From a virus (taxonomy: Duplodnaviria > Caudoviricetes), in the IMG/VR virus record IMGVR_UViG_3300037608_000205, positions 1 to 50,131 of that record: 50,131 bases of DNA. The stretch is one strand, 5' to 3'. This document shows, piece by piece, positions 14,461-50,114 of this stretch (within the stretch, counting starts at the first letter, position 1; every line of letters starts with the position of its first letter). The notes beneath the pieces are model-generated. The model ran no database searches, was not told the DNA's origin, and was given only the letters and a program-made list of their open reading frames with translations. The position numbers and the translations under genes are program-made.

Positions 14461-15573
14461 TTATTTTCTAATATGGATTTGGGTTTTGCCATTCGGTCTC
14501 TTTTGATATTCATTTAGAAACATCTCTAGTTTTTCTGTCAATTCATCTTTGACTTTGCCCTGTGCAATTGTAAAATATTTTTGAAGAATCCTTTCAGTAT
14601 CACGTCCATCTAGATCCGTACTGAATCCTTCCAGATAAGCCTTAGTATTCATTTGTTTGTATCCGATGAATTTACTTGGCGCGAAGCTATCAAGCTCTTC
14701 AAAATAGTACCAATGCCTGAAAAAATTGAGCTTATTTTCGATTGCATCTGATAGTTTCAAACCAGTTAAAAACGTTTTGGCATTTTCCAATACTTCTTCA
14801 TAGGATTCAACGAAAACATTTTCTGAAACCAAGCTTAATGTCGATCCTCTTTTGTTGACAAAGATTCCAACCCAGTCCAGTACAGCTGCGATAACAAACC
14901 CAGGACTGTATGCGGATTCACCCATGGCAATACCGTGAACCTCATGTGCAATATACCCTTCAAGTGAATTCATTGGCAGCTTTTCACTTCCAAGTTTACC
15001 TGCTCTTGCATAGCCCTTGTATAATTCTCCATCCTGTGCAACAGCAATATTGTATGCAGCTATAAAGGCATCCCAAGTCAGCTGATTCGCAACCGGTATT
15101 TTATCGCATTCTAGGCCGTTGCCATCTTTATCAAACCATATTTTGGCTTTGTTGCCGGCAGTTATAAGGTTTATGGTAGCAGTTCCTCCGCTCATGTTAA
15201 GCTTGTCCTTGATTCTTTTGATCACAAAGTGGTCATTCTCATTGATGAGTACAGATCCAATGCTATCTTCATTGTCATCACTCATTGATAAAAAAGCCTC
15301 TTTTTCATCCTTAAGTTCAAGTTTAATGAGTATATCCGATAATATTTGCTTTGCTTTTAAATACGTAATGCCTAGTTGGGCCTGAACATCTTTAAAGCTT
15401 CCTTCATTCAGAAGAAAAAGATTTACATATGCCATTTCCTCTTTTGTTAGAAAAGAGAATCTATTCATATTAAAATCTCCGGTCAAATCCAGCTTACAGT
15501 TATTGCAGCTCAGTTTTGTCACCATCAGTCTTTCATGGCATACCGGGCAAAAACCAACGACTTCTTTTTCCAT
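14461..15573 (-). CDS. Moron: DUF2089-like (Zn ribbon + HTH) N-terminus fused to uncharacterised domains
   Basis: CPVC...CNNC...GSFKDVQAQLGITY DUF2089-like pattern. AT-rich, with own terminator, inserted between two head-tail joining genes. Confidence 0.7.
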   Translation of the reverse strand: MEKEVVGFCPVCHERLMVTKLSCNNCKLDLTGDFNMNRFSFLTKEEMAYVNLFLLNEGSFKDVQAQLGITYLKAKQILSDILIKLELKDEKEAFLSMSDDNEDSIGSVLINENDHFVIKRIKDKLNMSGGTATINLITAGNKAKIWFDKDGNGLECDKIPVANQLTWDAFIAAYNIAVAQDGELYKGYARAGKLGSEKLPMNSLEGYIAHEVHGIAMGESAYSPGFVIAAVLDWVGIFVNKRGSTLSLVSENVFVESYEEVLENAKTFLTGLKLSDAIENKLNFFRHWYYFEELDSFAPSKFIGYKQMNTKAYLEGFSTDLDGRDTERILQKYFTIAQGKVKDELTEKLEMFLNEYQKRPNGKTQIHIRK

Positions 15574-16228: not shown

Positions 16229-17422
16229 CTACGCCTTCTGCTGAAGCACCTTGATGGCTTCTCCCAAGATCAGTTTGCCGTCCAGTCTCTGTGAGGCAAG
16301 GAATCCTACCTGCCCATTGGCGGCGTAGAGCTCATTGAGACGTTTAAAAGTTCTGCCCTGACGGTCTGCAATCCAGTAGTACTTGAAGTCTCCAAAGAGG
16401 ACGGTCTTTGCGGCGGATGCGATTGTCGGCATGTACTGGGATATCAGCACTGGACGGTTGATGATGGTATCAGGGGTTCCAGATTGGACAGAGGGCTGCC
16501 ACAGATACTGCCCCTGACCATCTTTCAGTTTTCTGATGGCTTTGACGGTCGCGTCATTCACTAGGAAAGTTGCTTTTTTTCTGTAGGCTGACTTCAGGCT
16601 GTGATAAAGGTCCAGCACCTCATCAATGGTAATGGCTGTCGCACTGGCGGTAGTAACACCAAGACCTGCTCCTCCCGTTGTATGAAGAAGACCTGTCGGT
16701 TTGCTGCTGGCGTTCCCGGTCAGGAAAGCCTCCTCTTCAGCGGCGCCGATTCTTCTGGCAAACTCAGTGGCGATATAGCCTTCAAGGTCAAAATAGCTGT
16801 CATTGAGAAGCTCATCGGAAACCTTCAGCATGGTCCCCAGTTTATAGGCTGACAGGGTCACCTGTGTGAAGGCGTCATCACTCTCATTAAAGGCTCCCTC
16901 TTCATCCATCCAGGCTGCAGATCCGTGGCTTGCAACCACTGGAATCTTTCTGTCCCCATGGCTTGTGGTGATGACATTGCACAGATTTCTCAACACGTTG
17001 GCTTCCTGTAGGGCTTGAATCAGTTGTTTCTCGTACTCATCCGGCACAAGGTAGCCGCCTTCGGAATCGGTCCCGACCTGAAGGGCGTTCTGAACGGAAA
17101 GGTTCAGCTTGTTTCTCATGGCACCCCAGAAAGCTATTTTGTATCCACCTGACGCCCTACCGGTTTTCTCTTCGATCATCTTCTCCGGTCTTGAGGCAAG
17201 GGGTTTGCTGATGGCAGCTGACAGCTCTCTGTCCATCATTTCCTGACGCTCAAGGCGATCGATTTCCTTGCCAAGGCTGACCACGTCATCCTCCATTTTT
17301 TCATAGACCGCATTGTCCTCCGGTTTGATCAGACCGTTCTCCTGACGATGCTCGTCAAGAAACACCTTGGCTTGCTCCCATACTTGGGCGCGTTTTTCTC
17401 TTAGCTCTTGAATTCTACTCAT
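16229..17422 (-). CDS. Major capsid protein, HK97 family
   Basis: N-terminal delta coiled coil; GGYLVP, LKDGQGQYLWQP, FGDF motifs. Start at 17422 after GGAGG. Confidence 0.95.
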   Translation of the reverse strand: MSRIQELREKRAQVWEQAKVFLDEHRQENGLIKPEDNAVYEKMEDDVVSLGKEIDRLERQEMMDRELSAAISKPLASRPEKMIEEKTGRASGGYKIAFWGAMRNKLNLSVQNALQVGTDSEGGYLVPDEYEKQLIQALQEANVLRNLCNVITTSHGDRKIPVVASHGSAAWMDEEGAFNESDDAFTQVTLSAYKLGTMLKVSDELLNDSYFDLEGYIATEFARRIGAAEEEAFLTGNASSKPTGLLHTTGGAGLGVTTASATAITIDEVLDLYHSLKSAYRKKATFLVNDATVKAIRKLKDGQGQYLWQPSVQSGTPDTIINRPVLISQYMPTIASAAKTVLFGDFKYYWIADRQGRTFKRLNELYAANGQVGFLASQRLDGKLILGEAIKVLQQKA

Positions 17423-17427
17423 ATTCA

Positions 17428-18240
17428 TTACCTCCAATTTTTAATCAACTCCAGCCGTCTTTCCAGCTGGGCAATAGGGATCTGGTTTACTGAAACTACA
17501 GGATCTTTAGGATTTTCATTAACCTGTTCCACGCTTTTTTCCGGTTCTTTTGTCTTATCTTCATCCTCGTTGGCCTTAAGATATTTCATCCTCGCCTGAA
17601 TGCCAGGCAGTTTGTTTCTTAGGGCGTTTGTCACTGTCATCTGGTCAAAGATAAAACCGTTTGATTTTTCATCCGCCTGCTCAGATTCATAGAGAATTTT
17701 ATCGGCAAACTTAAGCTCGACGGCCTTGTGGGCACTCATCCAGGTTTCGGCGTCCATCATGTGTGATATCTTCGCTCTGGATAGGCCCGTCTTTGTCTGA
17801 TAGGCATTGACAATGCTCTCCTTCACTTCACTCAAGAGGTTGATTCCCACTTGAAGATCCGCCACCTCGCCGGCAATAAGCATGGCCGGGTTGTGGATCA
17901 TGATCACAGACAGCGGAGAAACACACACCTCATCGCCTGCCATGGCAATCACTGAAGCGGCACTCGCCGCCAGTCCATCCACATGGACACTCACGTTACC
18001 GGGATACTCCTTTAGCATGTTGTAAATCTGCGCCGCGGCGAAGGTGTCGCCACCTGGCGAGTGTATCTTCACGACGATGTCGTCTGTCTTTGGCCCACTT
18101 GCATAAAGCTCTGTCTTGAATTGTTTCGGGGTGATGTCGTCGTCAAACCAGGAAGACTCCGCAATATATCCTTCAAGGTGCAGGGTTCTTACCGTTGGCT
18201 TATCGGCTTCATTCACCACCCATCGCCAAAATTTATCCAT
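17428..18240 (-). CDS. Prohead maturation protease, ClpP-like
   Basis: IHSPGGD, DGLAASAAS (Ser), MIHNP (His), ETWMSA motifs. Confidence 0.92.
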   Translation of the reverse strand: MDKFWRWVVNEADKPTVRTLHLEGYIAESSWFDDDITPKQFKTELYASGPKTDDIVVKIHSPGGDTFAAAQIYNMLKEYPGNVSVHVDGLAASAASVIAMAGDEVCVSPLSVIMIHNPAMLIAGEVADLQVGINLLSEVKESIVNAYQTKTGLSRAKISHMMDAETWMSAHKAVELKFADKILYESEQADEKSNGFIFDQMTVTNALRNKLPGIQARMKYLKANEDEDKTKEPEKSVEQVNENPKDPVVSVNQIPIAQLERRLELIKNWR

Positions 18241-18265
18241 CTAATCGACCTCCTTTTTTGGCATT

Positions 18266-18295
18266 AAAAAAGCACTCCCCATTTCGAGAAATGCT
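18266..18295 (-). terminator. Intrinsic terminator after cassette copy 1
   Basis: Minus strand AGCATTTCTC-GAAAT-GGGGAGTGCT-TTTTT (G-U pairs). Confidence 0.65.
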
Positions 18296-18450
18296 GTTGA
18301 TGCTTCTAATATGATTTTATCGTTGTCCACAGATAAAGGCCAAACTATATGCATCTTTGTAATAGATTTTCATTTCTAGATTTCTACTAGATTTTTTCAT
18401 TAAGAATCATTGCTAATGTGTACAAAAGATTATCTTCTTATATAGTTTTA

Positions 18451-18842
18451 TCAACTGTATATTTGTTTATCGAGAGAATCAAACGCCTCAAGCTGCTCTT
18501 GCATACCTAAATCTAACTCAGTCTTAATATAACTCCTTTTTTAATTTTGTTATAAAACGAAAATCAGAGAAGAGTCTAGAAACTGTTACAAGCAATCCAC
18601 CAATATCTAGCTGTTAAGGATTTTCAGTTATATATGAGACAGAAATATTACTACTTGTTGCAATAACGTTTGAATACATAAGTACTTTTCTAGTTCTGAC
18701 TTCATAGAACTCTCGGTCTCCATCAACCTCATGATCATAAAATAATCCATGCAACAATCCAATAATCATATTGACAATTATCGAAATCCCTGCTGATGCG
18801 CTTATAATTTTGGTGTCTCTAGCAAAACACAATGCATCATAT
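18451..18842 (-). pseudogene. Truncated remnant (3' part only) of the 466-aa gene at 23330-24730
   Basis: 18531-18842 aligns to 23409-23720 with 17 mismatches in 312 nt by manual count. About 1 kb of the 5' part is missing; AAA->TAA nonsense change at 18614-18616; +1 frameshift near 18530. Confidence 0.88.
18531..18842. repeat. Direct repeat copy 1 (about 94% identical to 23409-23720)
   Basis: Manual ungapped alignment. Confidence 0.9.
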
Positions 18843-19421
18843 CACTTTCAAGACTGCGTATCCTAAATCGTGCTTAAGGTCCTTTATTGCCTGATTTAAC
18901 AAAGTATTTAAACTGTTCAGGTACTCAATGCGATCTTTACTACTATCAGCTTCGTCTTTCAAGGCCTGTAAAACTGCATTATGTTTTTTTAAAGCTTCTT
19001 GGTATAAACGTTCTTTCTCTTGTTTCAACTGTTTATGCTTCAAATATACAGCAAATCGGACACCGCCTGCAGCTAAAATCGTAACTGGTAATGCTAACAC
19101 AAATATGCCTGCTACTGAAGCTGAAACAGCACCATTAAGAAGCGTTGTTGAAACAAACCCCCCTGCTGTAGCAAGACCTGACATAATACCAGGACCGCTC
19201 AGTCCGACTGTGCCTAAAGCATACAATGCTGTAAAAGATCCAACAGCACCAATTCCAGCTCCTACAACTCCCATTAATACTTCTGGAATAGCGCTCTCTC
19301 TAATCGTCCTCTTTTTATCATTTAAAGCTTCAGCTGATTCGTTTACAACATCAACCACATTTTGCAGAGCCTCAACACTCTGAAATTTCATTTCTTTCTT
19401 CTTTTTAACATAATCGCCCAT
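18837..19421 (-). CDS. Moron gene A, long form: Gly-rich hydrophobic hairpin + coiled coil; paralog of 24742-25182
   Basis: Shares FQSVEALQ, ESAIPE, EKERL, YLNSLN, DLKHDL with 24742-25182; long GxxxG-rich membrane segment. Confidence 0.8.
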   Translation of the reverse strand: MGDYVKKKKEMKFQSVEALQNVVDVVNESAEALNDKKRTIRESAIPEVLMGVVGAGIGAVGSFTALYALGTVGLSGPGIMSGLATAGGFVSTTLLNGAVSASVAGIFVLALPVTILAAGGVRFAVYLKHKQLKQEKERLYQEALKKHNAVLQALKDEADSSKDRIEYLNSLNTLLNQAIKDLKHDLGYAVLKVI

Positions 19422-19542
19422 ACTTATTCTCCTTATAATTCTCTGATCATAACTAGAATCTAATTACACTCTCAATTCTACATCAAGCTTTAAATTTCAT
19501 TGTTCATTAATAGTTAAGAAGAAATAAAGCGATGTCTTGTAA

Positions 19543-19571
19543 ATTTTAACATGTACTGCATTCCCTTTCAA
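19543..19571 (-). promoter_or_regulatory. Sigma-A promoter with extended -10 for cassette copy 1
   Basis: TTGAAA-17bp-TAAAAT with TGn; same architecture as 25302-25330. Confidence 0.7.
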
Positions 19572-19780
19572 CAACAACCTTCTTGATCATTATTCTAACA
19601 CCTAGATTCTAAGTTTATAAATAAAGAATCGCTTTGAAAGTTATGAAACATATGCCTTCCATCTACATTAATATTGAATTTATTGGGCGAAAAATTGAGT
19701 TTGTTATAATTATTGTGAAAACATACTTAAAGAGTTATTTAGTTTTTTTTACACTTAGAATCTAGATTATACTCTTATCA

Positions 19781-21013
19781 TCACGGCTCACCACCACTCT
19801 CACCCAAGGCTTTCTTTGCATAAGCTCCAGCCAGCTTAAGGGGCAGCATGTTGCCATTGACCAGATACAGATCACCACCGTCCTCTTCAGAGATGGGATC
19901 CATGTTCTCCATCCGCCTTACATCATTGACGGAGAAGAAACCATTTTGAATGCCGATGGCATAACCATCCATCCTGGACTTATAATCCCCTCTCATCAGT
20001 GCCGATGCGTTGAAGGACACGAAGCAATGGCCTTTCTCTTTTTCAAGAAAGAGCTTCTTGTTCATAGCCTGCTCTATTCGAACCAGCCAAGGCCGGATGG
20101 TATGGACCACAAAGCTGATGGACTGATTTTCGATGTTACTGAAAGAACTCTTGCTAAGATCCGCCACCATATGGGGTGGCACTTGAAAGATTCTACAAAT
20201 TTCCTCTATCTGAAACTTCCTCGTCTCTAGAAACTGGGCGTCGGAGTTTGGCATGCTGATAGCTTGGTACTGAAGGCCGTCCTCCAAGACCGCTACCTTG
20301 TTGCTGTTGTTGACACCGCCATAGGCCGATTGCCACGCGTCCCTCACCTTTGTTGGATCCTTTATGGTGCCTTGAGTGGAAAGAATGCCGCTTGGCGTGG
20401 CGTTGTTGGCAAAGAACCTGCCGCCATACTCCTCGGCGGCAATGTTAAGCCCAATGGCGTTTTTTGCAAGGGCCACCGGCGAGTAGCCTATGACGCCGTC
20501 AAAGCCAAGGCCCGGTATGTGCAGAATATCATCCGGTCCCAAATAGTGGGTGGTGCTTTCTTTTCGGTATGAGTAGTAGAGATTACCTTTGCTTTCTCGG
20601 TCCACTGTTATCTTATCCGGTAGAAGGGGATACAGATACTTCACCTCTCCCTTGCCGTTTCGTATGATCTGGCAGTATGCGTTTCCCCATAGCAGCAGAT
20701 GGGTCAACATGGTCTCCCTTAGGGTAAATGAGGTCATCTCGGGATTGGGTTCATCATGCAATACCTTGTACAAGGGATGAGTGTATATTTTTTCCTTCCC
20801 TTCACCTTGATACCGATAGGTGTGAAGCGGCAATGACGCCACGGTCTCCGCGATGATTCTCACACAGGCAAAAACCGCGGTGGTCTGCATGGCACTTCTT
20901 TCGTTAACCACCTTACCTGATACGCTTGTTCCCATGTAGAAATTTGGAGCGTTGCTTACACTGTCTGTAGGCTCCGCCTTGGCTCTTTTAAGCCATTTTA
21001 AAAAGTCTGCCAC
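19781..21013 (-). CDS. Portal protein, HK97 family
   Basis: AVFACVRIIAETVASLPL, LLWGNAY, HIPGLGFDG, ICRIFQVPP motifs. Confidence 0.95.
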   Translation of the reverse strand: MADFLKWLKRAKAEPTDSVSNAPNFYMGTSVSGKVVNERSAMQTTAVFACVRIIAETVASLPLHTYRYQGEGKEKIYTHPLYKVLHDEPNPEMTSFTLRETMLTHLLLWGNAYCQIIRNGKGEVKYLYPLLPDKITVDRESKGNLYYSYRKESTTHYLGPDDILHIPGLGFDGVIGYSPVALAKNAIGLNIAAEEYGGRFFANNATPSGILSTQGTIKDPTKVRDAWQSAYGGVNNSNKVAVLEDGLQYQAISMPNSDAQFLETRKFQIEEICRIFQVPPHMVADLSKSSFSNIENQSISFVVHTIRPWLVRIEQAMNKKLFLEKEKGHCFVSFNASALMRGDYKSRMDGYAIGIQNGFFSVNDVRRMENMDPISEEDGGDLYLVNGNMLPLKLAGAYAKKALGESGGEP

Positions 21014-21027
21014 GATTTATTTACCTC

Positions 21028-22584
21028 CTATCCTAAAATGATCATATCGCGTTCATCATAAATGGAGCCTTCATCATCCGGTGGATTTACCGCAGCTCTT
21101 GCTAGTCCCATAATGAGGGCGACAATGCCATCAATCTTGTCAGCAGACTTTTCCTTATCCACCTTGATGTTGCCAGCCGGGTCTGTCCGGACCACAATAT
21201 TGTCCGCCATCCACCGTAGGACCGGATGACCGCCATGGGCAATCTGTTTGCTCAATATAAGCCGCATAAGATCCTTTGTCGGCGGGGACATATCCTTGAA
21301 GCCTTGTCCAAACGGAACCACTGTAAATCCCATCCCCTCAAGGTTCTGACTCATTTGAGTAGCACCCCATCGATCATAGACAATCTCTCTTATATTGTAC
21401 ATCTCGCCAAGGCGCTCGATAATCTTCTCGATATAGCCGTAGTGGACCACGTTCCCTTCTGTAAGAAGAATTCGTCCTTGCTTGTGCCAAATGTCATAGG
21501 GAACGCTATCTCGCTTAACCCGCTGATGAAGAGTTTCTTCCGGGATCCAGAAGAAAGGCACTACCTGGTATTTATCCATTTCATCCTCCGGCGGAAACAC
21601 CAATACAAATGCGGTGATGTCCGTGGTGGATGAAAGGTCCAGGCCGCCATAGCAGACGCGTCCTTCCAATTCTTTCGGGTCTATAGAAAAATTACATAGG
21701 TCCCATTTGTCCATGGGCATCCATTTGATTTCCTGCTTTAGCCACATATTCAGTCTAAGCTGTTTAAAGAGAGCCAGATCGGCTGGATCATCTTTGACCT
21801 GGTTATAATGTTCCCTGACCCGCTCTATGGAAATGGTATGGTTAAGGCTTGGGTTGGCCTTATACCAATTGCTTTCATCCGCGATATCCGCATCGTCCTC
21901 CAGCCCGTAAATAATGGACAGGAAGGCTGGATCTACTCTTTTACCTTCCAAGACATCCTTTGCCTTTTGGTGCATCTCCCAGCCATAACCGGAGAGCTGG
22001 TTGCCGGCGGTGGTGAGGTATAAAAAGAGGGGCTGTGTTCTGGCATCGCCTGATCCGGTGGTGAGCATCTTCGCCAAATCCGGATTGGGATAGGTCCAGA
22101 TCTCATCCAGGATGACACAGGAGGCGTTGATTCCAGACTTTGATTTGACATCAGAGCTTAATACCTGATAGAAGCTGCCTGTCTTAGGGTAGGTGATGCG
22201 TTTGGTTGACCTTACAAGGTTTGTCACCTTTGACAGGGTGGGATTTCCTTCCACAAAGTTCATGCTGGTGTTGAAAATGATGCTGGCCTGTTGTCTGTCA
22301 CAAGCTGCCACATACACTTCCGCATTGGGTTCGCCGTCGGCTAGAAGCATATATAGTGCAATGGCTGCGCCGAGCTCACTTTTTCCATTTTTCTTTCCGA
22401 TCTCCACATAAGCGGTGCGGAACTGACGGGTGCCATCTTCTCTTAATGTTCCAAATAGTTTCTTCACCAGATCCTTCTCCCAAGTAAGTAGTCTGAAAGG
22501 CTGTCCGGCCCATCTGCCTTTTGTCAGCTTTAGTTGCTCGATAAAATCAATGGCATGATTGGCATGGGCTTCGCTATAGGACAT
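21028..22584 (-). CDS. terL: Terminase large subunit
   Basis: Walker A GKKNGKS, Walker B VILDE, nuclease GGLDLS and KIDGIVA. Confidence 0.96.
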   Translation of the reverse strand: MSYSEAHANHAIDFIEQLKLTKGRWAGQPFRLLTWEKDLVKKLFGTLREDGTRQFRTAYVEIGKKNGKSELGAAIALYMLLADGEPNAEVYVAACDRQQASIIFNTSMNFVEGNPTLSKVTNLVRSTKRITYPKTGSFYQVLSSDVKSKSGINASCVILDEIWTYPNPDLAKMLTTGSGDARTQPLFLYLTTAGNQLSGYGWEMHQKAKDVLEGKRVDPAFLSIIYGLEDDADIADESNWYKANPSLNHTISIERVREHYNQVKDDPADLALFKQLRLNMWLKQEIKWMPMDKWDLCNFSIDPKELEGRVCYGGLDLSSTTDITAFVLVFPPEDEMDKYQVVPFFWIPEETLHQRVKRDSVPYDIWHKQGRILLTEGNVVHYGYIEKIIERLGEMYNIREIVYDRWGATQMSQNLEGMGFTVVPFGQGFKDMSPPTKDLMRLILSKQIAHGGHPVLRWMADNIVVRTDPAGNIKVDKEKSADKIDGIVALIMGLARAAVNPPDDEGSIYDERDMIILG

Positions 22585-22620
22585 CGGGTCTTCCTCCTTT
22601 TATGTGTTCTATTCATCTTC

Positions 22621-23121
22621 TTAATCTTCCAGCAGCTCTTCGACACTTGGAACGTTTGAGAGTAAGGCTTCCATGACACTGCCTTCGATGGTGTTTCCGG
22701 CATTGCTGATATTTAGCCGGCTTCTTGCCGATGGACTTAAACCCAACTCTGAACAGAAATTTCGCATCTGCTTTAAATTCTGCTGGGCGATAGAGACTTG
22801 AGGTATCTGCTGGATGTATCCTGAAGCGGTCTTTAAGATGGAGCCGTGTTTCGATATGAATTCCTCGGCTTCCTTCCATCTGGCATAGGCCTGGCAGTAG
22901 CCTGCAAAAGCGGCCATATCGACTTGTGTCAGCAAACCCATGGTTTCCAGTTCTTTTGAAAGCCTTCGCCATTCTTTCTTAGCGTCCGGCTCAAGCCATG
23001 ACGGGCACTTGGGGGCTTGTTGTTTCGGTTTCGGTTCATTTTTATTCAGCGGTCTTTTTCCAGGGTTTCCTTCCAACTCCTTAATTGCTGTTGGTTTGGG
23101 TGGTCTTCCTCGACCTGCCAT
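22621..23121 (-). CDS. terS: Terminase small subunit, P27 family
   Basis: GRPPKPTA..LEGNPGKR, CPSWL, ELGLSPSAR motifs. Confidence 0.93.
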   Translation of the reverse strand: MAGRGRPPKPTAIKELEGNPGKRPLNKNEPKPKQQAPKCPSWLEPDAKKEWRRLSKELETMGLLTQVDMAAFAGYCQAYARWKEAEEFISKHGSILKTASGYIQQIPQVSIAQQNLKQMRNFCSELGLSPSARSRLNISNAGNTIEGSVMEALLSNVPSVEELLED

Positions 23122-23149
23122 AAGCTTTCACCTCCTTTTCTCTGCATAG

Positions 23150-23178
23150 AAAAAGGAACTCTCATCTTGAAAGTCCCT
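23150..23178 (-). terminator. Intrinsic terminator after cassette copy 2
   Basis: Minus strand AGGGACTTTC-AAGAT-GAGAGTTCCT-TTTT. Confidence 0.7.
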
Positions 23179-23329
23179 GTTTGAGCTTCTATTTTCTATT
23201 TATACTTTTTCGCGTCTATACAAAACCCGCCTCATTATGGGGAGAATTATTTACCTTTCGATTACTGCTTCCTCTATTTTTTTACTAAATAAAAAAATCT
23301 CGCTTATTCAAAGAGGCTAAATAGTATAA

Positions 23330-24730
23330 TTAAATTATATATTCAGTATACAATCTGTCTGCTTCATCAAGCTCTTTTTGCATACCTTCTTCTAATTGAC
23401 CGGTTATAAACTCCTTTTTTAATTTTGTAATAAAACGAATATCAGAGAAGAGTCTAGAAACTGTTACAAGCAATCCACCAATATCTAGCTGTTTAGGATT
23501 TTCAGTTATACATGAGACAGCAATATTACTACTTGTTGCAATAACGTTTGAATATATAAGTACTTTTCTAGTTCTTGCTTCATAGAACTCCCGGTCTCCA
23601 TCAACTTCCGGATCATAAAATAATCCATGCAATAATCCAATAATCATATTGATAATTATCGAAATCCCTGCTGATCCGCTTACAATTTTGGTATCTCTAG
23701 CAAAACACAATGCATCATATTGGTTTTTATAAAGATTTCCTGCCAAACTTTCTGAAAATGCTCCTAAAAACGGAACAGGCAATCCTAATTTTGTGTATTT
23801 ATCAGATTCATAATGAAGAGCTTGCCTGAATAATGCAGCAGGAAGTCTATGAAAATCATCTTTTATCCAATAATGCGCTTCTCCAAATACCTGAATAATA
23901 AAAACCGTCTCATCTGTGAATTTTCCGTTTTTTATACGATATGATGTCAGATTATTCAATGTCAAAGTATCTGTTAATATATTGGCAGTTCCAAACACCC
24001 ATCCTAAAATAGGATCATGACCTAATGTCTTATATCTATGGTTTTTACCTTCCATATTAATACCTATAGCAGGAGAACCTGCCGTAACATCATAAGGAAC
24101 TCCCTTATAAAGTATCTCCTTCCATGACTTGCCTTCTTTTTCTCTTAGTCTACTACCTTTACTATCTTTACTCGTATCCCAATCCTTATGTTTATCAGCA
24201 AACACGTCTTTTTTCTCTTTGACTTTTGCATCTCCTGCTTTATCATCAATTCTAGTATTAGAATCAATTTTCTCTCCAAGTTCTGGCAAAAGCACCCATT
24301 TTATCGTTTGTAAAGCTGTTGCAATAAATAAAAATATTATATCCGTTCGATTCATTTTTACTTTTGAAGCAAACTCATCCTTAATACGTTCAAGGTCATC
24401 GAGTGCAAATGCAAATTCGTGGCTAGATAGAATATCTTCCAACTCAACTTCATACGGAATCATTTCATTAGCTTCTTCAACTAGAACTTCCCAATCTTTT
24501 AATGTTGATAATATGACTAATCGTTCTAATTGTTCACTTCCGCTAGGCTTAATAATCTCATCTAAATCATATCCTAAGTCTTTAAGCAATGCCTCACTTG
24601 ATTCAATACTAGATTCAGCTTTTCTTTTGACTTTCTTATTTTGGTCGCTTATTGACTCTGACAACATCTCATTCATTTTGAGAACTTTATTCTTATTTTT
24701 TTCATCTTGAGTGTACTTATATTTTCCCAT
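23330..24730 (-). CDS. Moron gene B: uncharacterised 466-aa protein (N-terminal coiled coil, HRYKTLGHDPILG motif, hydrophobic C-terminal helices)
   Basis: Long AT-rich ORF, 11 nt downstream of gene A; no enzyme motif recognised with confidence. Confidence 0.8.
   Translation of the reverse strand: MGKYKYTQDEKNKNKVLKMNEMLSESISDQNKKVKRKAESSIESSEALLKDLGYDLDEIIKPSGSEQLERLVILSTLKDWEVLVEEANEMIPYEVELEDILSSHEFAFALDDLERIKDEFASKVKMNRTDIIFLFIATALQTIKWVLLPELGEKIDSNTRIDDKAGDAKVKEKKDVFADKHKDWDTSKDSKGSRLREKEGKSWKEILYKGVPYDVTAGSPAIGINMEGKNHRYKTLGHDPILGWVFGTANILTDTLTLNNLTSYRIKNGKFTDETVFIIQVFGEAHYWIKDDFHRLPAALFRQALHYESDKYTKLGLPVPFLGAFSESLAGNLYKNQYDALCFARDTKIVSGSAGISIIINMIIGLLHGLFYDPEVDGDREFYEARTRKVLIYSNVIATSSNIAVSCITENPKQLDIGGLLVTVSRLFSDIRFITKLKKEFITGQLEEGMQKELDEADRLYTEYII
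23409..23720. repeat. Direct repeat copy 2 (about 94% identical to 18531-18842)
   Basis: Manual ungapped alignment. Confidence 0.9.
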
Positions 24731-24741
24731 TGCAAACGCCC

Positions 24742-25182
24742 TTATGTTACATATTCCAAATCATGTTTGAGATCATTAATTGCCTGCTGGAGCAAAATAT
24801 TGAGGCTATTTAAATAGTTAATTCGCTCATTATTAGAATCAGATTCCTTTTTCAAAGCTTCTAAAATTTCATTATGTTTCTTTAATACTTCTTGAAACAG
24901 ACGCTCCTTCTCTTGTTCTAATTGCTTATACTTCTTATACTTCAGATGAGCTACCATACCTAAGCCGCCGGCAGCAAGTGCAGCTAAAACAAAAACGCCA
25001 GCAACTGCTACAATTCCACCAGTAAAAGCAACTCCTAATAGTTCTGGAATTGCACTTTCTGTTATCGTTCTCTTTTTGTCTTTAAGAGCTTCATCTGATT
25101 CGTTAACAACACTAACGACAGTCTGCAAAGCCTCAACACTTTGAAATCTCATATCTTTCTTTCTCTTTATGTATTCACTCAT
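24742..25182 (-). CDS. Moron gene A, short form (Gly-rich segment internally shortened)
   Basis: Paralog of 18837-19421 lacking roughly 45-50 residues of the hydrophobic Gly-rich stretch. Start MSEYIK aligns with MGDYVK. Confidence 0.78.
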   Translation of the reverse strand: MSEYIKRKKDMRFQSVEALQTVVSVVNESDEALKDKKRTITESAIPELLGVAFTGGIVAVAGVFVLAALAAGGLGMVAHLKYKKYKQLEQEKERLFQEVLKKHNEILEALKKESDSNNERINYLNSLNILLQQAINDLKHDLEYVT

Positions 25183-25301
25183 AATCAACCCCCCCAAGAT
25201 TTGATATATTATTCATTCCTAAACTCCACTTCAATTTTTAAATTACAATTGAATTCGCTATTCTCAGGCCTTTTACGAGGAAATTAAGCAATTGATTCCA
25301 T

Positions 25302-25330
25302 ATTATAACATTTATTAAACCCTCTTTCAA
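25302..25330 (-). promoter_or_regulatory. Near-consensus sigma-A promoter with extended -10 for cassette copy 2
   Basis: TTGAAA-17bp-TATAAT preceded by TGT. Confidence 0.78.
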
Positions 25331-25619
25331 TAAATTCAGCGTGTTTCAGTGCGGTTATTCCAACAACCCTTAACTTTAAAAGTGCTTAATAAGCCTCAAG
25401 TTTAAGCAGAAGTAGTCCTGGAGTATTCCATTACTTCCTTTCGAAACTCAACATATGTGTTTTTCATATACTCTCCGATAAGGGTATTGTTTAGGCAGTT
25501 ACATAATGCAAAACCATCCGTTTTGATAATCTTCGTACCAAGAAACACATATTTCAACAAATCCAGTGACGTATGCTTTTAATTCGTGTCTGCATAAAAT
25601 CCGCCTTAATGGTGCAATG

Positions 25620-25829
25620 TTATTTACCTCTGATCCCTTTGAAGTTGTAATTTCCTTTTTTGATTTCCTCCTGGTCTGCCTCGACCGCTTTTTTATACTC
25701 GGGACTTTTTGTTTCCTTCTCCTTGCAGCTCATGCATAGACAATCCTCGTTGAACATAGACATGATGCGTCCACCTTCCAGGTTGCAGCAGCAGCGGTCG
25801 CAGTATTTTTGATTGAAAAATCGATCCAT
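25620..25829 (-). CDS. Small Cys-rich phage protein
   Basis: CDRC and CMSC pairs; RBS GAGG; co-oriented with neighbours. Confidence 0.7.
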   Translation of the reverse strand: MDRFFNQKYCDRCCCNLEGGRIMSMFNEDCLCMSCKEKETKSPEYKKAVEADQEEIKKGNYNFKGIRGK

Positions 25830-25838
25830 TTTTTCCTC

Positions 25839-26027
25839 CTACTCCACATCGACATATTCCATGATGATGGATAGCGCCTCGCTATAACTTCTTGCCTCTT
25901 TTGGTATTCTGCCTATCATCTCTTTCGCCTTTTCTGGTTCGCTATTCTCTTTCAAGGCTCTTGACGCAAGCCCCATCAAATTAAAAATGTTGCCGTCCTC
26001 ACCTATTAGTTTGCATCTAGGCTTCAT
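25839..26027 (-). CDS. Hypothetical phage protein
   Basis: KPRCKLIGEDGNIFNLMG...SYSEAL..IMEYV; overlaps the upstream gene stop. Confidence 0.7.
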   Translation of the reverse strand: MKPRCKLIGEDGNIFNLMGLASRALKENSEPEKAKEMIGRIPKEARSYSEALSIIMEYVDVE

Positions 26028-31046: not shown

Positions 31047-32381
31047 TTAATTCATAAGTCCAAGTAGCCGAGTATTAATTGATTCTGGACATTCGAACTT
31101 GTCGTTGTTCAACCAACAAATCAGGATATTCCTGTCCTTCAAAATATAATCTAATATCCACGACTCATTTGGTCGTTTATTAAGAACAATACACAATTCA
31201 GCGTCACTCATATTATGAAGAAATCTATATTCATAAAGCTGTGCGATGGCCTTCCGTATTTGCTCACACTCATTGGAATTATGTATCGATTTCATCTCAA
31301 AGATAATATTCATCTCATCTTGAGCAATGAACAAATCGATCAGGTTGTTATTCAACGGTAAAAAACCTGTCCCGACTATTTTACTAGCCATTGTATTCAC
31401 CAACTGATTGTGAATAATATTTGCTCTTTCTAATTTAATATGTGTTTCAATACTTGAAATGACTGATTCTGCCTGAAAAGCACTTCTAACTTCGCCAAGA
31501 TTTTCACGTTCATAATCAAATACAATTGTATGTATAGACCAATCAATACTATTAAAATTGTCTTTTGATAAAACTGTCCCATCGGTGAGTACTAAATTAC
31601 AGTTTTCAAGTTTATTGCTGATTTTTAGCTTTTGCGACTCAGTCATTGCGACACCTCTCCGTATGTGGGAGCCAATTCTAGTTATTGTATCCTTATTTGC
31701 TAAATTATCTTCTTTTTTGATAATTGGCGTTTGAATTCTAGTGATTTCCCAGTTTCTAGCTTCGTCGTTAAGATACACTATAGCGTGATTGATTCTTGCC
31801 AAAAAATCTGCTTTTTTTAGCATATCAATAAATTCATTTTCTTTTTTGAGAAAGTCAATTTCACTAATTACACCTTTGTTAAATTGTTTATACAATCCCG
31901 AAAAATTGTTAAATTTTTGTGCTATCTGTATAACTTCGATATCATCAATAAAACCGAATGCTTTATATATAATAAACCAGTCCCACTGATCTTTTCTTTC
32001 ACAACGATTAATAAGACCTTTAATCTCGGAAAAGTGTGCTCTTTCAATATGCTCAAGCTCTTGATTTTTGATTAAAATTAGTTTTTTAAAATAAAGTAAT
32101 GCATCAAAATACCTGTTTAGAGTATTCGGTTTTGGTGGAAATTTGCCAAAATTTGAAATGCCAATAACCATATATTTCGAATCCTGTTTTTTTCTAACTA
32201 TCCAGCCCTCAATTTGATCACCAACTCTAATCAATTTAATGGTATTTCTAAGTCCAGAATTCCATTGCATTTGACAACACCAATCGCTATCATCAATATC
32301 CACATCAAACTTCATTTCACCATTCACGTTTTGAATTTTACTAATCTTCCCAACTATTGAATCTCCAATATGATAATTCAT
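31047..32381 (-). CDS. Moron: S1/OB-like N-terminus + C-terminal PD-(D/E)XK nuclease
   Basis: YHIGDSIVGKISKI...RVGDQIEGWI S1-like pattern; IDLF...FEMKS...QIRKAIAQLYEY restriction-like motif. Very AT-rich; start after GGAGG. Confidence 0.68.
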   Translation of the reverse strand: MNYHIGDSIVGKISKIQNVNGEMKFDVDIDDSDWCCQMQWNSGLRNTIKLIRVGDQIEGWIVRKKQDSKYMVIGISNFGKFPPKPNTLNRYFDALLYFKKLILIKNQELEHIERAHFSEIKGLINRCERKDQWDWFIIYKAFGFIDDIEVIQIAQKFNNFSGLYKQFNKGVISEIDFLKKENEFIDMLKKADFLARINHAIVYLNDEARNWEITRIQTPIIKKEDNLANKDTITRIGSHIRRGVAMTESQKLKISNKLENCNLVLTDGTVLSKDNFNSIDWSIHTIVFDYERENLGEVRSAFQAESVISSIETHIKLERANIIHNQLVNTMASKIVGTGFLPLNNNLIDLFIAQDEMNIIFEMKSIHNSNECEQIRKAIAQLYEYRFLHNMSDAELCIVLNKRPNESWILDYILKDRNILICWLNNDKFECPESINTRLLGLMN

Positions 32382-32566
32382 CACTACCTCCAATACATCC
32401 CAGTGTACTAACAAATAGTACCACAATTCAAGTTATTTAAATAGTTATATTGGATTCTAATTATACACTTATATTGGATTCTATTTATATATTTAGTGAT
32501 AATTAACATTAAAGAAACAGATATTTTAGCTTCCGTGTGGAATAAGTCATCTTCAGATTGAAAAGA

Positions 32567-46098: not shown

Positions 46099-46169
46099 GT
46101 TGATATAGAGTGATGCTACATTCTAATTTCGCTCGGAAGCTGCTATCAAATACTAAATGGAGTGTCTCA

Positions 46170-47417
46170 ATGCTAATGATTATGGTAAAACAAGGTTATA
46201 TTGTAGTGGATGACGACGACAATTTGATATATGACGATGTCAATGAACATGAGTATCTATTCAATTTTCTAGACGAAGATTTGAGCACTGCCGCCAACCT
46301 CTTCGAAGAAAGCTTTTATGCAATTCTTAACCACTATCACCCAGATCAAGATGATTATCCGGATATATCCGATCATATGTATTTGCTGGAGGAAGGCTTG
46401 AAAGAAATACATCCATTTCTCCAATATTCTTATGACGACTTTCTGTTCAATTCTATCGGTGATTTTTTGAATGCCAACTTAATACACCAATTGAATGGGA
46501 ATGGAAGCCATACCTTTTCATCATTGCTAGATGAATTTCTTTATAACGACTTATTCAAAAAACTGTATCCCAATTCTTATGATAAGTTTGATGAGAAGGT
46601 TTCTAAGTTTTATAAATCATACTACTACAACGCTCTAGACGAACCTGATATAGATGCCTCATATATTCCCTTACCTCCCCAGGGCTTATATGATTTGATA
46701 GACCTGCAAAATCAATTGCGTAAAATGGTATTCTGGATTCTGAATCCCTCAATCGATCACTTAAATGAATTGTCCACCGATGAAAGAATTGTTGCATACA
46801 ACATTATATGTGGAAAACAATTTGGTTCCAATCCTGTAAGTTTTTCTAAAACATTCAGTTTTTCAAACACCAATCAAGTTCAAAATGATAATAGATATGA
46901 GAGTCTGATTGACCTTCATAACCATCCTGACAGTATTGGAGCGGAAGAGATCGAGGAGTTAAGGAACGTTGTAGAGCAAGTTAAAAACACTAATGTTAAA
47001 GGACTGGTTGAAACATATGAAGTGAAAGTGTTGGCGGACGTACTTTTTTATCAAGTTTATCATATGGTTTTGTATGAAGAGAAAGTCAAGAAATGCAGGA
47101 ATTGCGGAAAGCATTTTATTGTCAGACATTTGAATGTTGAATACTGCAATCGAAAAGTCAAATCTTTGAAGAGCACTGAAAAAAACAGCACCTGTTTTGA
47201 TATAGGATCAAAACTGGCCTATCAGAAGAAACTAAAAGAGGATCTGCCATTGCAATACTACAACAGATCCTACAAAACTCATTACGCTAGAAGAAAAAAC
47301 AGTAAAATGTCTCAATCCGATTTCTATGAGTGGCAACAGGAAGCCAAGGCTAAACTTGATGCCGTTAGATTGGGTGAGTATGATTTTGAAGCATATAAGG
47401 TGTGGCTAAAAAAGTAA
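46170..47417 (+). CDS. DUF6076-like protein (C-terminal Cys cluster)
   Basis: KKCRNCGKHF...EYCNR...TCFDIG...YKTHYAR. Start at 46170 chosen for RBS GGAG (track start 46110). Confidence 0.68.
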   Translation: MLMIMVKQGYIVVDDDDNLIYDDVNEHEYLFNFLDEDLSTAANLFEESFYAILNHYHPDQDDYPDISDHMYLLEEGLKEIHPFLQYSYDDFLFNSIGDFLNANLIHQLNGNGSHTFSSLLDEFLYNDLFKKLYPNSYDKFDEKVSKFYKSYYYNALDEPDIDASYIPLPPQGLYDLIDLQNQLRKMVFWILNPSIDHLNELSTDERIVAYNIICGKQFGSNPVSFSKTFSFSNTNQVQNDNRYESLIDLHNHPDSIGAEEIEELRNVVEQVKNTNVKGLVETYEVKVLADVLFYQVYHMVLYEEKVKKCRNCGKHFIVRHLNVEYCNRKVKSLKSTEKNSTCFDIGSKLAYQKKLKEDLPLQYYNRSYKTHYARRKNSKMSQSDFYEWQQEAKAKLDAVRLGEYDFEAYKVWLKK

Positions 47418-47595: not shown

Positions 47596-48444
47596 TCATT
47601 TTATGTTTGCAGTCATTTCAACACGCACACCTTTGTGCAAGTAACCTTTATGGACTTTTGCAATATCCTGCATGCATCCCAATTTTATTGGAGCACTGTA
47701 TAGACGTTCAATAACTTCTTTTTTTATAGTTTTAATGATAATTCGTGCTTCACTTTGCTCTGCAAAGCGGATGTTTTTTACCAGTAATTCTTCAGGGTAT
47801 TTTTGACCAAAATCCATCCAGCCATTAGAACCGTGTGCCTCAAAATCAAAATATGAAACATTCCCAATTAGTATTTCAGAATCTTCCAAACCAACTTTTC
47901 TCAATGCTTTATGCAATCTATTCTTAAATTCATCAAAGTCGGAAATGATTATCAGTGCAGGTTGGTCCTCTAACGGTAACATTTCAATATCTTCCGGTAA
48001 ATTATTGTCTGAAAAGTCTCTAAAATATGAAGCTGGTATATTAGCGGTTATCCTGTGTTTTCCCTCACTATCAGGACAAGAAAACAAGCTGTTTTTCATG
48101 ATGTACACACAAAAGCATGGCAAGCTTAAACTTCGTTTATCTTTTAAAAACAGTCTTTCCCCGCATATTTCCTTGTATAATGGTCTGGCATTAGGATTTA
48201 AGATACAGCTAGACTCATATTTTTGAATTAATTCGGATATACGTTCAACATCTAAACTATGACAAAATGCCAGAGTTCCCTCATATCCATCTCCTCGTCC
48301 ATCTCCATATTTTTTGGAGTAATCAATCCACGATTCGGGTGTGTTGAATTTGATTGATCCTGTATCTATAAAAGATTCAGCATATTTAGAACTAGTTAAT
48401 CTAAAGACAGCAGAAAAACTATTAGGTTTTTCCCATTCTCCCAT
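47596..48444 (-). CDS. Hypothetical protein, possibly ADP-ribosyltransferase-like/DUF2971-like
   Basis: FRLT...GSIKFNTP..W, RGDGYEG, CFC, and K...F..Q.E.R C-terminal pattern. Start after AAGAGGTG. Confidence 0.5.
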   Translation of the reverse strand: MGEWEKPNSFSAVFRLTSSKYAESFIDTGSIKFNTPESWIDYSKKYGDGRGDGYEGTLAFCHSLDVERISELIQKYESSCILNPNARPLYKEICGERLFLKDKRSLSLPCFCVYIMKNSLFSCPDSEGKHRITANIPASYFRDFSDNNLPEDIEMLPLEDQPALIIISDFDEFKNRLHKALRKVGLEDSEILIGNVSYFDFEAHGSNGWMDFGQKYPEELLVKNIRFAEQSEARIIIKTIKKEVIERLYSAPIKLGCMQDIAKVHKGYLHKGVRVEMTANIK

Positions 48445-48606
48445 AAAACACCTCTTTTTTAAGTAAAAATGCATACATTTTACTCTGTGAATTATCCAAT
48501 TAAGATTGGTCGATTTTAATATCTTCATTTTTACATATTAAATTAAAGATAAACAAACCTCCTTATATAATATGAAAGGAACTCAATATTAAATGTTTTT
48601 AGACAT

Positions 48607-49218
48607 CTACTTTTTCACCCTTGACTTCACAGCTTCAAACTTCATCGAGCCTCTTGATTTTCTACCAGTAAAATAGTTTCCTTCGAGTACCATCGGATTG
48701 CTTATATTCAGCATTGCTGTTCCATAGTGCATTGGGCTTCGGTCTTGAATTTCTGCTCGAGGATCATTCTGGTAAGTATAGATTAGGTATTGAACGCTCT
48801 GTACCTTGCCAAATGAAGCAGTCAAACTTCTGCTAGTGCTTTCTTCTGTTTTTAACAAAATCGCCACATTCAAGAACGTCTGATCAATAACAATTTCTCC
48901 AAAACGCTTTGTACTATCATAATCCGATATGAACGTCCCACAATAATTCTTTGCAAGTACAGGCACATCATTCATCCAACATAGCCATTTCCACTTCCAT
49001 GCCCATTTATTAAATATCGCCATTAAAATAGCCGCAATACCAATAGCTTCACCGATAAATCCAAATGAACTATAACTAAGATTTAAAACATGTCCAGCCT
49101 CCCACATGTTTTTTACATCAGACCATGAAATGAGGTAACGAACCAGTGTAAGAATTGCTGTTAGCCAAATACTAATATTGACAAATCTCTTGACATTTGC
49201 ATCCATACTTAACCTCAC
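48607..49218 (-). CDS. cap15: CBASS 2TM-beta-barrel effector (Cap15 / S-2TMbeta-like)
   Basis: Two TM helices, W-rich FNKWAWKW, then IDQTF, YTYQNDP...HYGTAML...LEGNYFTGR beta domain; overlaps the CD-NTase stop. Confidence 0.85.
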   Translation of the reverse strand: MRLSMDANVKRFVNISIWLTAILTLVRYLISWSDVKNMWEAGHVLNLSYSSFGFIGEAIGIAAILMAIFNKWAWKWKWLCWMNDVPVLAKNYCGTFISDYDSTKRFGEIVIDQTFLNVAILLKTEESTSRSLTASFGKVQSVQYLIYTYQNDPRAEIQDRSPMHYGTAMLNISNPMVLEGNYFTGRKSRGSMKFEAVKSRVKK

Positions 49219-50114
49219 TTGAAGTCTATGTAATTATACATGTTGTATAGGAAGAGTTTTGTATCTTCCGGTGTCCATTTGCGTCCAGAATGAAACAGGT
49301 ACAAACGTTCACTAACTTCTCCCCATTGTTTGTGTTTCTCATCTTTAATTGCATTCCATAAAAAAACGATGACGTTTTGAACAGTTTCAACCCAGGTTTT
49401 ACCTGCCATGATAGTCCCATTCGGTACATTCCAAACGAGACATTCAATCAAAAATGACGTTATTTTATCACCGTCCGCCTTTCCATCACCAACCATATCA
49501 TTGCGTATGTGCTTCATGATTCGAACGAGCTTCTTATATTCGTAGTTAGTGCTATTATTCTTCTGCTTGCCATTGCTGATGTGATCTTTAGGATAATTAA
49601 TTACCTCAGTACCATCGTTTGAAAAGAACTGAATACCCTCTACATATTTTCCAGAATCTGTACTACTTAGAATTTTATAATCCCTATACTGGAAGGCAGG
49701 AACAATATCTGCATTTATATGATAGCTATTAGCCTCAATATTTATACTCTTATTCCCAACGTTAATTACATAGTCTCCAAACTTTTTCTTTAATGCTTCA
49801 CCAATATAAGTTTTATAATCAGGATAAGTAATCGAGCCCTCTGTATATCCGTAATCCTTATCTGTCTTTCCATCAACATAATTGCAATAAAACGTAGATG
49901 TCAACATCACGCAAATATCCACATCGCTATTTTGTCTGACATTAGTATTATTTGCATAGGAGCCTTGTGCAAAGATCTCCATCGTACAATCCGTCAACTT
50001 ATAGTACGATGTTACAGCATCTTTAGTCATTAGAACTGCATTTTCAACACGCTGCTCTTCAGTTTTGGAAAGCGGTGACGTCCATGATGCAAAAGTTTCT
50101 TCTGTATATTTCAT
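49215..50114 (-). CDS. cdnE: CBASS cGAS/DncV-like nucleotidyltransferase, CdnE-like
   Basis: QGSYANNTNVRQNSDVDI (GS + DxD), ADIVPA third Asp, INYPKDH, YKKLVRIMK, SFLIECLVWNVP. Confidence 0.9.
   Translation of the reverse strand: MKYTEETFASWTSPLSKTEEQRVENAVLMTKDAVTSYYKLTDCTMEIFAQGSYANNTNVRQNSDVDICVMLTSTFYCNYVDGKTDKDYGYTEGSITYPDYKTYIGEALKKKFGDYVINVGNKSINIEANSYHINADIVPAFQYRDYKILSSTDSGKYVEGIQFFSNDGTEVINYPKDHISNGKQKNNSTNYEYKKLVRIMKHIRNDMVGDGKADGDKITSFLIECLVWNVPNGTIMAGKTWVETVQNVIVFLWNAIKDEKHKQWGEVSERLYLFHSGRKWTPEDTKLFLYNMYNYIDFK

Follow-up and report, generated by a model that had tools for sequence, protein, structure and literature searches.

We analysed a viral genome of 50,131 bp (the window), which is spanned in full by one IMG/VR record (IMGVR_UViG_3300037608_000205) with a CheckV completeness of 100%. 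Within its phage head-gene module lie two copies of a small cassette, both on the minus strand, in which a gene for a Gly-rich membrane and coiled-coil protein (A) is followed by a gene for a larger, mostly helical protein (B). The host element of both cassettes is a temperate phage; two large serine recombinases at 2-2891 match the integrase family phrog_95 with E values of 1.6e-144 and 1.4e-119. An earlier note on this DNA had placed two cassettes here, each behind a TTGAAA-17-TG promoter-like site, and both were found again at their places (Table 1). We describe the two copies, their relationship to the Bunzi anti-phage system and the way in which they may act.

Two A-B cassettes inserted among phage head genes

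Table 1. Features of the two cassettes and the surrounding head genes, in window coordinates
Feature	Position	Strand	Remarks
Promoter-like site, copy 2	25330-25302	-	TTGAAA-17-TATAAT with extended -10 TG; 11/12, best site of the region
A-short (copy 2)	24742-25182 (ATG, 146 aa) or to 25197 (TTG, 151 aa)	-	ORF list
B (copy 2)	23330-24730	-	Intact, 466 aa
Terminator-like hairpin and T run after B, copy 2	23178-23154	-	Just before the TerS ribosome-binding site
Inserted/variable segment with copy 2	23156-25619		Between TerS and a conserved phage gene of 69 aa (25620-25829)
Promoter-like site, copy 1	19571-19543	-	TTGAAA-17-TAAAAT with TG; 10/12
A-long (copy 1)	18837-19421	-	194 aa, intact
B remnant (pseudogene, copy 1)	18527-18847	-	Corresponds to B residues 336-442, 87% aa identity
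Terminator-like hairpin after copy 1	18295-18271	-	-14.7 kcal/mol, z -2.31
Inserted segment with copy 1	18350-19766		Between portal and prohead protease
TerS	22621-23121	-	ORF list; name from related GenBank phage
TerL	21028-22584	-	ORF list; name from related GenBank phage
Portal	19781-21013	-	ORF list; name from related GenBank phage
Prohead protease	17428-18240	-	ORF list; name from related GenBank phage
Major capsid protein	16229-17437	-	ORF list; name from related GenBank phage

Copy 2 carries the intact B gene together with the shorter of the two A genes (A-short), as the earlier note had described. Its promoter-like site precedes the start of A-short by about 120 nt; for that start the ATG is likelier than the TTG because a G-rich ribosome-binding site stands before it. 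A-short consists of an N-terminal helix, a single Gly/Ala-rich hydrophobic segment of about 33 residues and a C-terminal coiled-coil hairpin, and hydropathy analysis gives one segment (42-82). It is 67-69% identical to A-long, the A protein of copy 1, from which it differs by the absence of about 43 Gly-rich hydrophobic residues (alignment columns ~70-101 and some others). The hairpin behind B (-17 kcal/mol, z -2.78) is not within DNA shared with phages that lack the cassettes; homology to these resumes at 23155. The segment holding copy 2 has a GC content of 0.34-0.35 versus ~0.48-0.50 in the adjacent head genes, and in related phages the same slot upstream of TerS is a spacer of ~340-650 bp that is not homologous to it.

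Copy 1 presents the opposite picture, again in agreement with the earlier description: A-long is complete and its B gene is a pseudogene. Hydropathy analysis of A-long gives two Gly-rich hydrophobic stretches, 42-75 and 88-128. Its AlphaFold model has an overall pLDDT of 66; helices at the N-terminus and a helical hairpin at the C-terminus (121-156, 162-186) are modelled well, and the Gly-rich region 73-123 is below 50. The first ~335 B codons of this copy are gone and the last ~105 remain in disrupted form, with one TGA (at the joint), one TAA and a one-base insertion. The joint of the deletion falls in the final codons of A-long, where five residues, 'VLKVI', have taken the place of the '...DLGYA(A/T)' end seen in relatives and lead into the remnant out of frame. 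At the DNA level 18531-18830 is 94% identical to 23409-23708. The remnant also retains an ORF of 72 aa with a TTG start (18614-18832, minus strand), whose product would comprise only the two hydrophobic helices near the C-terminus of B.

The earlier note had further read promoter, A, B and terminator as a unit present twice. All of these elements were found, but the hairpin after copy 1 sits in DNA that is 86-89% identical to related phages without a cassette and therefore belongs to the phage backbone rather than to the cassette. The AT-rich stretch has no overall enrichment of promoter-like sites (25 found versus 18.0 +/- 4.3 expected), so that the argument for the two cassette promoters rests on their position and not on their number.

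For the insertion status of the cassettes we used 80 related phage loci whose portal proteins are 59-91% identical to that of the window. Neither A nor B was detected in any of the 80 (tblastn, E <= 1e-5), and since both are absent throughout this set the two cassettes are moron insertions. The gap between portal and protease measures 50-188 bp in 77 of the 79 related loci that hold both genes, against 1540 bp here. The borders were mapped by alignment with the four closest relatives with long flanks, in which backbone homology covers 19830-19767 and 18349-18203. The GC content, ~0.48-0.51 in the head genes, falls to 0.34-0.38 across 18001-20000 and 23001-26000. GenBank phages gave two weak backbone matches only, and no cassette. 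The head module has another variable insertion site in the gap between TerL and portal, which is 14 bp here; two close phage relatives contain an extra ~1.15-1.2 kb at this position (L177:4152-5302 and L183:2691-3890).

The two copies are mosaic. Their DNA is 78.5% identical over the first 48 A codons and 72% over the C-terminal part of A, the B remnant and B are 93.7% identical over 315 nt, and the flanks of the two copies do not align. A-long and A-short are separated by a saturated dS of 2.28 with a dN/dS of 0.08, whereas the B remnant and B have a dS of 0.10 and a dN/dS of 0.40 (19 nucleotide and 11 amino acid differences in 104 codons). A simple recent tandem-type duplication was considered as the origin and rejected, since the dS of the A genes is ~20 times that of the B patch. 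The simplest reading of these distances is that two diverged cassettes underwent a recent exchange, probably by gene conversion, in the 3' part of B.

Contigs of two samples carry the same arrangement. A contig from sample X2 reproduces copy 1 with zero differences across 18380-21179, and the contigs of sample X1 break at the shared 300-nt repeat, where a separate 114-nt contig has about double depth; X1 is possibly the source sample and both samples possibly belong to one campaign, which limits their independent support. In X2, one contig also links 19578 to 25369 with 20 other letters between them, both points lying just upstream of the cassette promoters; the shorter side of this link has only 36 nt at a likeness threshold of 85, so that it possibly stems from another element.

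Relationship of A and B to the Bunzi system

Bunzi is a validated anti-phage defence system composed of BnzA and BnzB, and a preprint on it describes BnzA as a protein with TerB, transmembrane helices and a predicted lipid-interacting domain, and suggests a role in membrane surveillance (Millman et al. 2022, 10.1101/2022.05.11.491447). Passages of two later sources still list its mechanism as unknown (10.1101/2024.10.26.620412; PMC12926258).

B matched the PADLOC model of BnzB (PDLC03834) with an E value of 6.9e-36, residues 10-456 of the protein aligning with 45-495 of the 504 profile positions, and all 30 aligned B relatives matched the same model (best E 9.7e-42). Comparison of B with one canonical BnzB, cut at the end of its locus, gave an hhalign probability of only 81.6% (E 1.1e-5). 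B is a distant homologue of BnzB. In its AlphaFold model (pLDDT 85) helices predominate: a long one spans residues 8-51 at the N-terminal end, and three hydrophobic ones span 129-152, 346-374 and 390-409. The protein contains HRYKTLGHDPILG at residues 231-243, where the invariant residues are H231-R232...G237-H238-D239-P240, and the conserved HRYKTLGHDPILGW motif adjoins a small beta-sheet (255-276). The B family is large: of 8000 scored candidates at least 1728 belong to it at E <= 0.001, and a profile search over representatives of clusters at 50% identity returned 1129 at that threshold, 688 at <= 1e-10 and 381 at <= 1e-30. A profile search of PDB sequences with B gave no usable match, a scan of viral contigs using B alone found no relatives and the Protein Atlas placed B in unnamed clusters only. 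Complex prediction for B with A-long scored 0.00 against a mark of 0.32, which has no bearing either way.

For A, the relationship emerges from the family. The PADLOC BnzA model was matched by 36 of 40 aligned A relatives (best E 1.5e-13), and in four searched genomes with A-B loci it matched the short A genes at profile positions ~293-407 each time. In one of them, from Carnobacterium, locus L092 has a canonical BnzA gene (E 2.7e-146) with a BnzB gene behind it, and hhalign aligned the A-family profile with this BnzA at a probability of 97.2% (E 3.5e-11), A columns 52-155 corresponding to BnzA 335-440. The aligned region, ~100 columns long, is the Gly-rich membrane stretch together with the start of the next helix. 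A is a predicted BnzA core without the N-terminal ~330 residues, which bear TerB in Bunzi. Pfam found no TerB in A and no residues of A matched BnzA profile positions 1-~290; as Pfam finds no TerB even in the canonical Carnobacterium BnzA (E <= 0.001), the absence of TerB rests on the missing region.

Taken together, the A-B pair resembles Bunzi as a two-gene operon with A before B, as in L092, in the coverage of nearly the whole BnzB model by B, in the Gly-rich membrane segment that A and BnzA have in common, including a conserved Gly/Ser/Ala-rich block, and in the transmembrane segments predicted from hydropathy in A (two in A-long, one in A-short). It differs in size, A having 146-194 aa versus ~540-600 aa for BnzA and lacking the N-terminal region as well as part of the C-terminal region, and in distance, the E value of B to the BnzB model being ~1e-36 versus 1e-100 or better inside the model's own family. 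In addition, relatives of A replace the missing head by an ADP-ribosylglycohydrolase (ARH) or Macro domain. A canonical Bunzi (L092) and a minimal pair (L057) coexist in one Carnobacterium genome. The module is very probably a Bunzi relative, and we regard A and B as a distinct, smaller architecture that would work like Bunzi and that annotation pipelines probably miss because BnzA scores are weak. This revises the earlier note, in which the pair could not be assigned to a named system; a match to a described system, which that note counted against its proposal, was found in part, over nearly the full length for BnzB and over the core only for BnzA.

Partners, heads and neighbours of the A-B family

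Our survey covered 86 loci from several phyla (80 from species genomes and six from viral contigs), with A homologues called by phmmer at E <= 1e-3. At 65 of these loci A immediately precedes B on the same strand, separated from it by a median of 13 nt, and both proteins contain hydrophobic segments, so that the conserved two-gene membrane module proposed in the earlier note, with A and B consistently adjacent, held up. In three loci from Bacteroidales the A-like gene instead follows B directly, and a fourth such locus (L015) was recognised by eye only. An A-like partner is present at all 69 loci where the B match starts at residue 7 or before, and at none of the 17 loci with a short B (match start at residue 77-125), which have other genes instead. 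The first ~105 residues of the long B would deal with A, as we infer because only the A-partnered forms of B have them.

Directly downstream of the short B, five loci (L066, L076, L079, L085, L090) encode a soluble, conserved coiled-coil protein of ~140 aa that belongs to no known family and may be the partner replacing A in this subfamily. A viral contig (L089:4379-10405) has two short-B-type genes: behind one lies the gene of a 587-aa protein without a known family, behind the other that of a dynamin-like protein of 556 aa (Pfam Dynamin_N, E 1e-20; PADLOC LeoA, E 2.9e-13). Among phages, L091, with a related head module (portal 54% identical), carries a short-B-type gene directly after the prohead protease (L091:6615-8963), which suggests that B-family morons recur in this kind of head module; genes for Macro and ADP-ribosylglycohydrolase proteins lie a few kb further on (L091:11651-14618). 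Ten longer B relatives have 826-1224 aa, and the B core is N-terminal in the two that were aligned; one of the ten (951 aa) contains septin and MMR_HSR1 GTPase domains and another Sel1 repeats.

These GTPases raise the question of Eleos (LeoA/LeoBC). The C-terminal part of the PADLOC LeoBC model was matched by A-long (E 3.7e-4) and by 32 of the 40 aligned A relatives (best E 3.6e-6), and for P0121 the LeoBC match had an E value of 9.1e-5 over 228 residues. The likeness of the A module to this membrane and coiled-coil part is weak and limited to a low-complexity region, and although some relatives of the B core have a dynamin- or septin-type GTPase as neighbour or fusion partner, Pfam finds no GTPase family in A or B. 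Membership of the pair in Eleos is unsupported, the dynamin-type GTPase domain being missing. The same observations could be taken to mean that A and B repair or stabilise membranes, scaffolding or sealing damage in the manner proposed for bacterial dynamin-like proteins, so as to protect the lysogen from envelope stress or to delay phage-induced lysis: LeoBC is a dynamin-type defence protein, a B-like gene stands before the LeoA-matching protein of L089 and the 951-aa fusion joins a B core to GTPase domains. A Bacillus dynamin-like protein reportedly protects against phage. The GTPase links, however, belong to the short-B subfamily, which has no A, and neither protein of this phage has such a domain, so we consider a repair function unlikely.

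Lengths of 181-184 aa are the most frequent for A (26 of 73 listed ORFs). With a usual length of ~182 aa, A-long represents the ancestral architecture and A-short a derived deletion form, which answers in favour of the long form the earlier note's question of which length came first. Short, single-segment A proteins nevertheless stand beside intact B genes elsewhere, as in L062 (150 aa), in Bacteroidota (122-143 aa) and as the second A of L043 (141 aa). Two complete A genes precede a single B in L031, L033 and L043 (A-A'-B), and the order in L043 (183 aa, 141 aa, B) mirrors this phage, except that here the long A sits at a separate locus. A-short need not be defective, as suggested by these short forms beside intact B and by the dN/dS of 0.08. 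The reciprocal degeneration described in the earlier note is thus borne out only by half, for the B pseudogene of copy 1.

A more sceptical view of the same data is that both cassettes are decaying cargo without present function. The loss of B in copy 1 fits such decay, as does the absence from A-short of ~43 residues that nearly all close relatives keep, and the dN/dS between the B remnant and B exceeds that of the A pair. On the other side, B, A-short and A-long are all open and have ribosome-binding sites and strong promoter-like sites, other lineages pair a short A with an intact B, and the arrangement is identical in a second sample; we judge general decay to be improbable.

Longer relatives of A provide a further view of its architecture. 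Eighteen proteins of 354-578 aa are 57-72% identical to A-long over ~95% of its length and carry additional heads, which are Pfam ADP_ribosyl_GH in 15, Macro in two and of another kind in one; the A part is C-terminal in all five that we read. In L098 an ARH-A gene, apparently interrupted by a 606-aa ORF, is followed directly by B, and in L036 a separate ADP-ribosylglycohydrolase gene stands directly before A-B, behind a regulator with a helix-turn-helix (HTH) and a WYL domain; these observations come from just two loci. A metagenome scan with ARH-domain patterns returned 80 loci, of which L098 alone combined an A domain with a B gene, and no ARH-A fusions were found in 399 sampled Clostridia genomes. 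The window contains no ARH or Macro gene. The Protein Atlas gave, for A, a structural lead to a cluster of a 672-aa ADP-ribosylglycohydrolase, which we take as a lead only. From these proteins the head on A appears to be exchangeable, ADP-ribose-removing enzymes included. A full-text literature search returned no TerB-less Bunzi and no BnzA-like protein with an ARH or Macro head, and the family tables of Millman et al. 2022 may list some.

Most A and B homologues are found in bacterial genomes beside regulators and recombinases. Serine recombinases neighbour the B family at 14 loci and XRE-type HTH genes at six, and HTH-WYL regulators occur at 11 loci, mostly just upstream on the same strand; the WYL protein matched the PADLOC WYL model with an E value of 3.7e-27. 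WYL regulators, such as BrxR and CapW, commonly control defence systems. The recombinases, the tight coupling of the A and B genes and the decay pattern of copy 1, where B is lost and A is intact with its promoter, would also suit a toxin-antitoxin-like addiction module that stabilises prophages or mobile elements, in which B would be a membrane toxin, A its neutraliser and copy 1 an orphan antitoxin. This reading overlaps with a defence function, since many defence systems are toxin-antitoxin-like, but a simple addiction module would hardly account for the enzyme or sensor-like heads on some A-type domains, for the arrays in which A occurs twice or for WYL regulators, which are typical of defence systems, and we hold out little probability for it.

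The distribution of homologues also speaks to a role in the phage's own lysis or its timing, as a holin, antiholin or spanin-like accessory. In favour of this, A combines small size, membrane segments and a coiled coil, and PHROG families of Rz-like spanins and holins are weakly matched by A-short (best E 1.7e-3). These matches lie below any useful threshold, the cassettes are located in the head module beside TerS, portal and protease rather than beside a lysin, all 80 related phages lack them and their homologues are mostly bacterial, so that a lysis function is very improbable. Among the Pfam, PHROG and NCBIfam matches of A, DUF5305 (E 2.4e-4, below the cut-off), xenorhabdolysin A (1.3e-3) and the Rz-like spanin (1.7e-3) were all rejected as coiled-coil or transmembrane noise.

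Proposed action of the module and other cargo of the phage

On balance, we think that the cassettes represent a minimal, TerB-less Bunzi relative that acts as a moron-borne anti-phage defence module. The comparisons behind this proposal show homology to both Bunzi components, a conserved operon, carriage by phages and mobile elements, neighbours of defence type and hydrophobic segments in A and B; the working that we infer from them is as follows. A lysogen would express A and B from the cassette's own promoter. A would serve as a membrane-anchored sensor or gatekeeper, i.e., the input, and B as a constant membrane effector; we assign the variable, sensor-like part to A because its relatives carry exchangeable N-terminal heads. 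The trigger would be a superinfecting phage that disturbs the membrane, or a signal that reaches A, upon which the A-B pair would either permeabilise or depolarise the membrane (abortive infection) or block genome entry (superinfection exclusion). Copy 2, with A-short and B, would be the candidate working unit, and A-long of copy 1 might be a second A for the single B, as in the A-A'-B arrays, or might simply not yet have decayed. The possibility raised in the earlier note that one B is served by two A variants gains support from these arrays.

Several observations weigh against this proposal. A-long itself matches the PADLOC BnzA model only weakly (E 1.1e-3, profile 296-413 of 544), A-short has no BnzA match at E <= 1 and hits LeoBC only, and TerB, a feature highlighted for Bunzi, is absent from A; A-short may also be defective after all. 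B belongs to no family in Pfam, PHROGs or NCBIfam, and of the structural matches of its model none of 177 in the PDB reached E <= 0.001 and none of 411 in BFVD was significant; with neither family nor fold match, B is no more than a putative effector. The B family is rare, occurring in nine of the 399 sampled Clostridia genomes with the seed genome included, and the only lactococcal Bunzi homologue tested was unprotective against the phages tried, according to passages of PMC11381338. For these reasons we place action in phage defence somewhat above an even chance, and offer membrane disruption as the specific action of A and B only tentatively.

If the minimal pair is a Bunzi relative, TerB would not be part of the conserved Bunzi core, which would instead consist of a ~180-aa Gly-rich membrane and coiled-coil protein and a ~465-aa protein of novel-looking fold (no PDB or BFVD match). 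The pair would then offer a smaller and cleaner system for mechanistic work, together with a concrete hypothesis on what is sensed, and the intact pair plus orphan full-length A of this phage would, with the A-A'-B arrays, form a natural genetic test of two A variants feeding one B. It is tempting to speculate further, though we consider it rather unlikely, that A and B are the irreducible core of a large modular membrane-immunity family with a constant B core and interchangeable partners. In such a family the Gly-zipper anchor of A would occur without a head, with TerB (Bunzi) or with an ADP-ribosylglycohydrolase or Macro head, and other B cores would be wired to dynamin- or septin-type GTPases. 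The heads would act as sensors that respond, for instance, to ADP-ribosylation driven by phages or to signals derived from ADP-ribose, B would be a membrane effector of a new kind whose fold has not been seen before, and this phage would run one B with two A inputs from separate loci.

The phage carries further cargo. A type I CBASS lies at its end (48607-50114, minus strand), composed of a Cap15-type effector with two transmembrane helices (203 aa, 48607-49218; PADLOC E 1.7e-69, Pfam Cap15_CD_rec 3.1e-18) and a SMODS-family nucleotidyltransferase, the cyclase (299 aa, 49215-50114; Pfam E 1.1e-6). Like the A-B cassettes, superinfection-exclusion and membrane-defence morons of prophages such as this Cap15 are small, membrane-directed, low-GC cargo with a promoter of their own, but there is no relation in sequence or fold, and A and B come without a nucleotide-signal synthase or receptor domain. 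An Rfam search of the whole window gave no match. Four more low-GC islands (0.32-0.40) at 14461-15573, 31047-32426, 46110-47417 and 47596-48528 contain ORFs of 310-459 aa that matched no PADLOC or PHROG family and may be additional cargo genes; the first begins with a DUF2089 zinc-ribbon/HTH and the third carries DUF6076.

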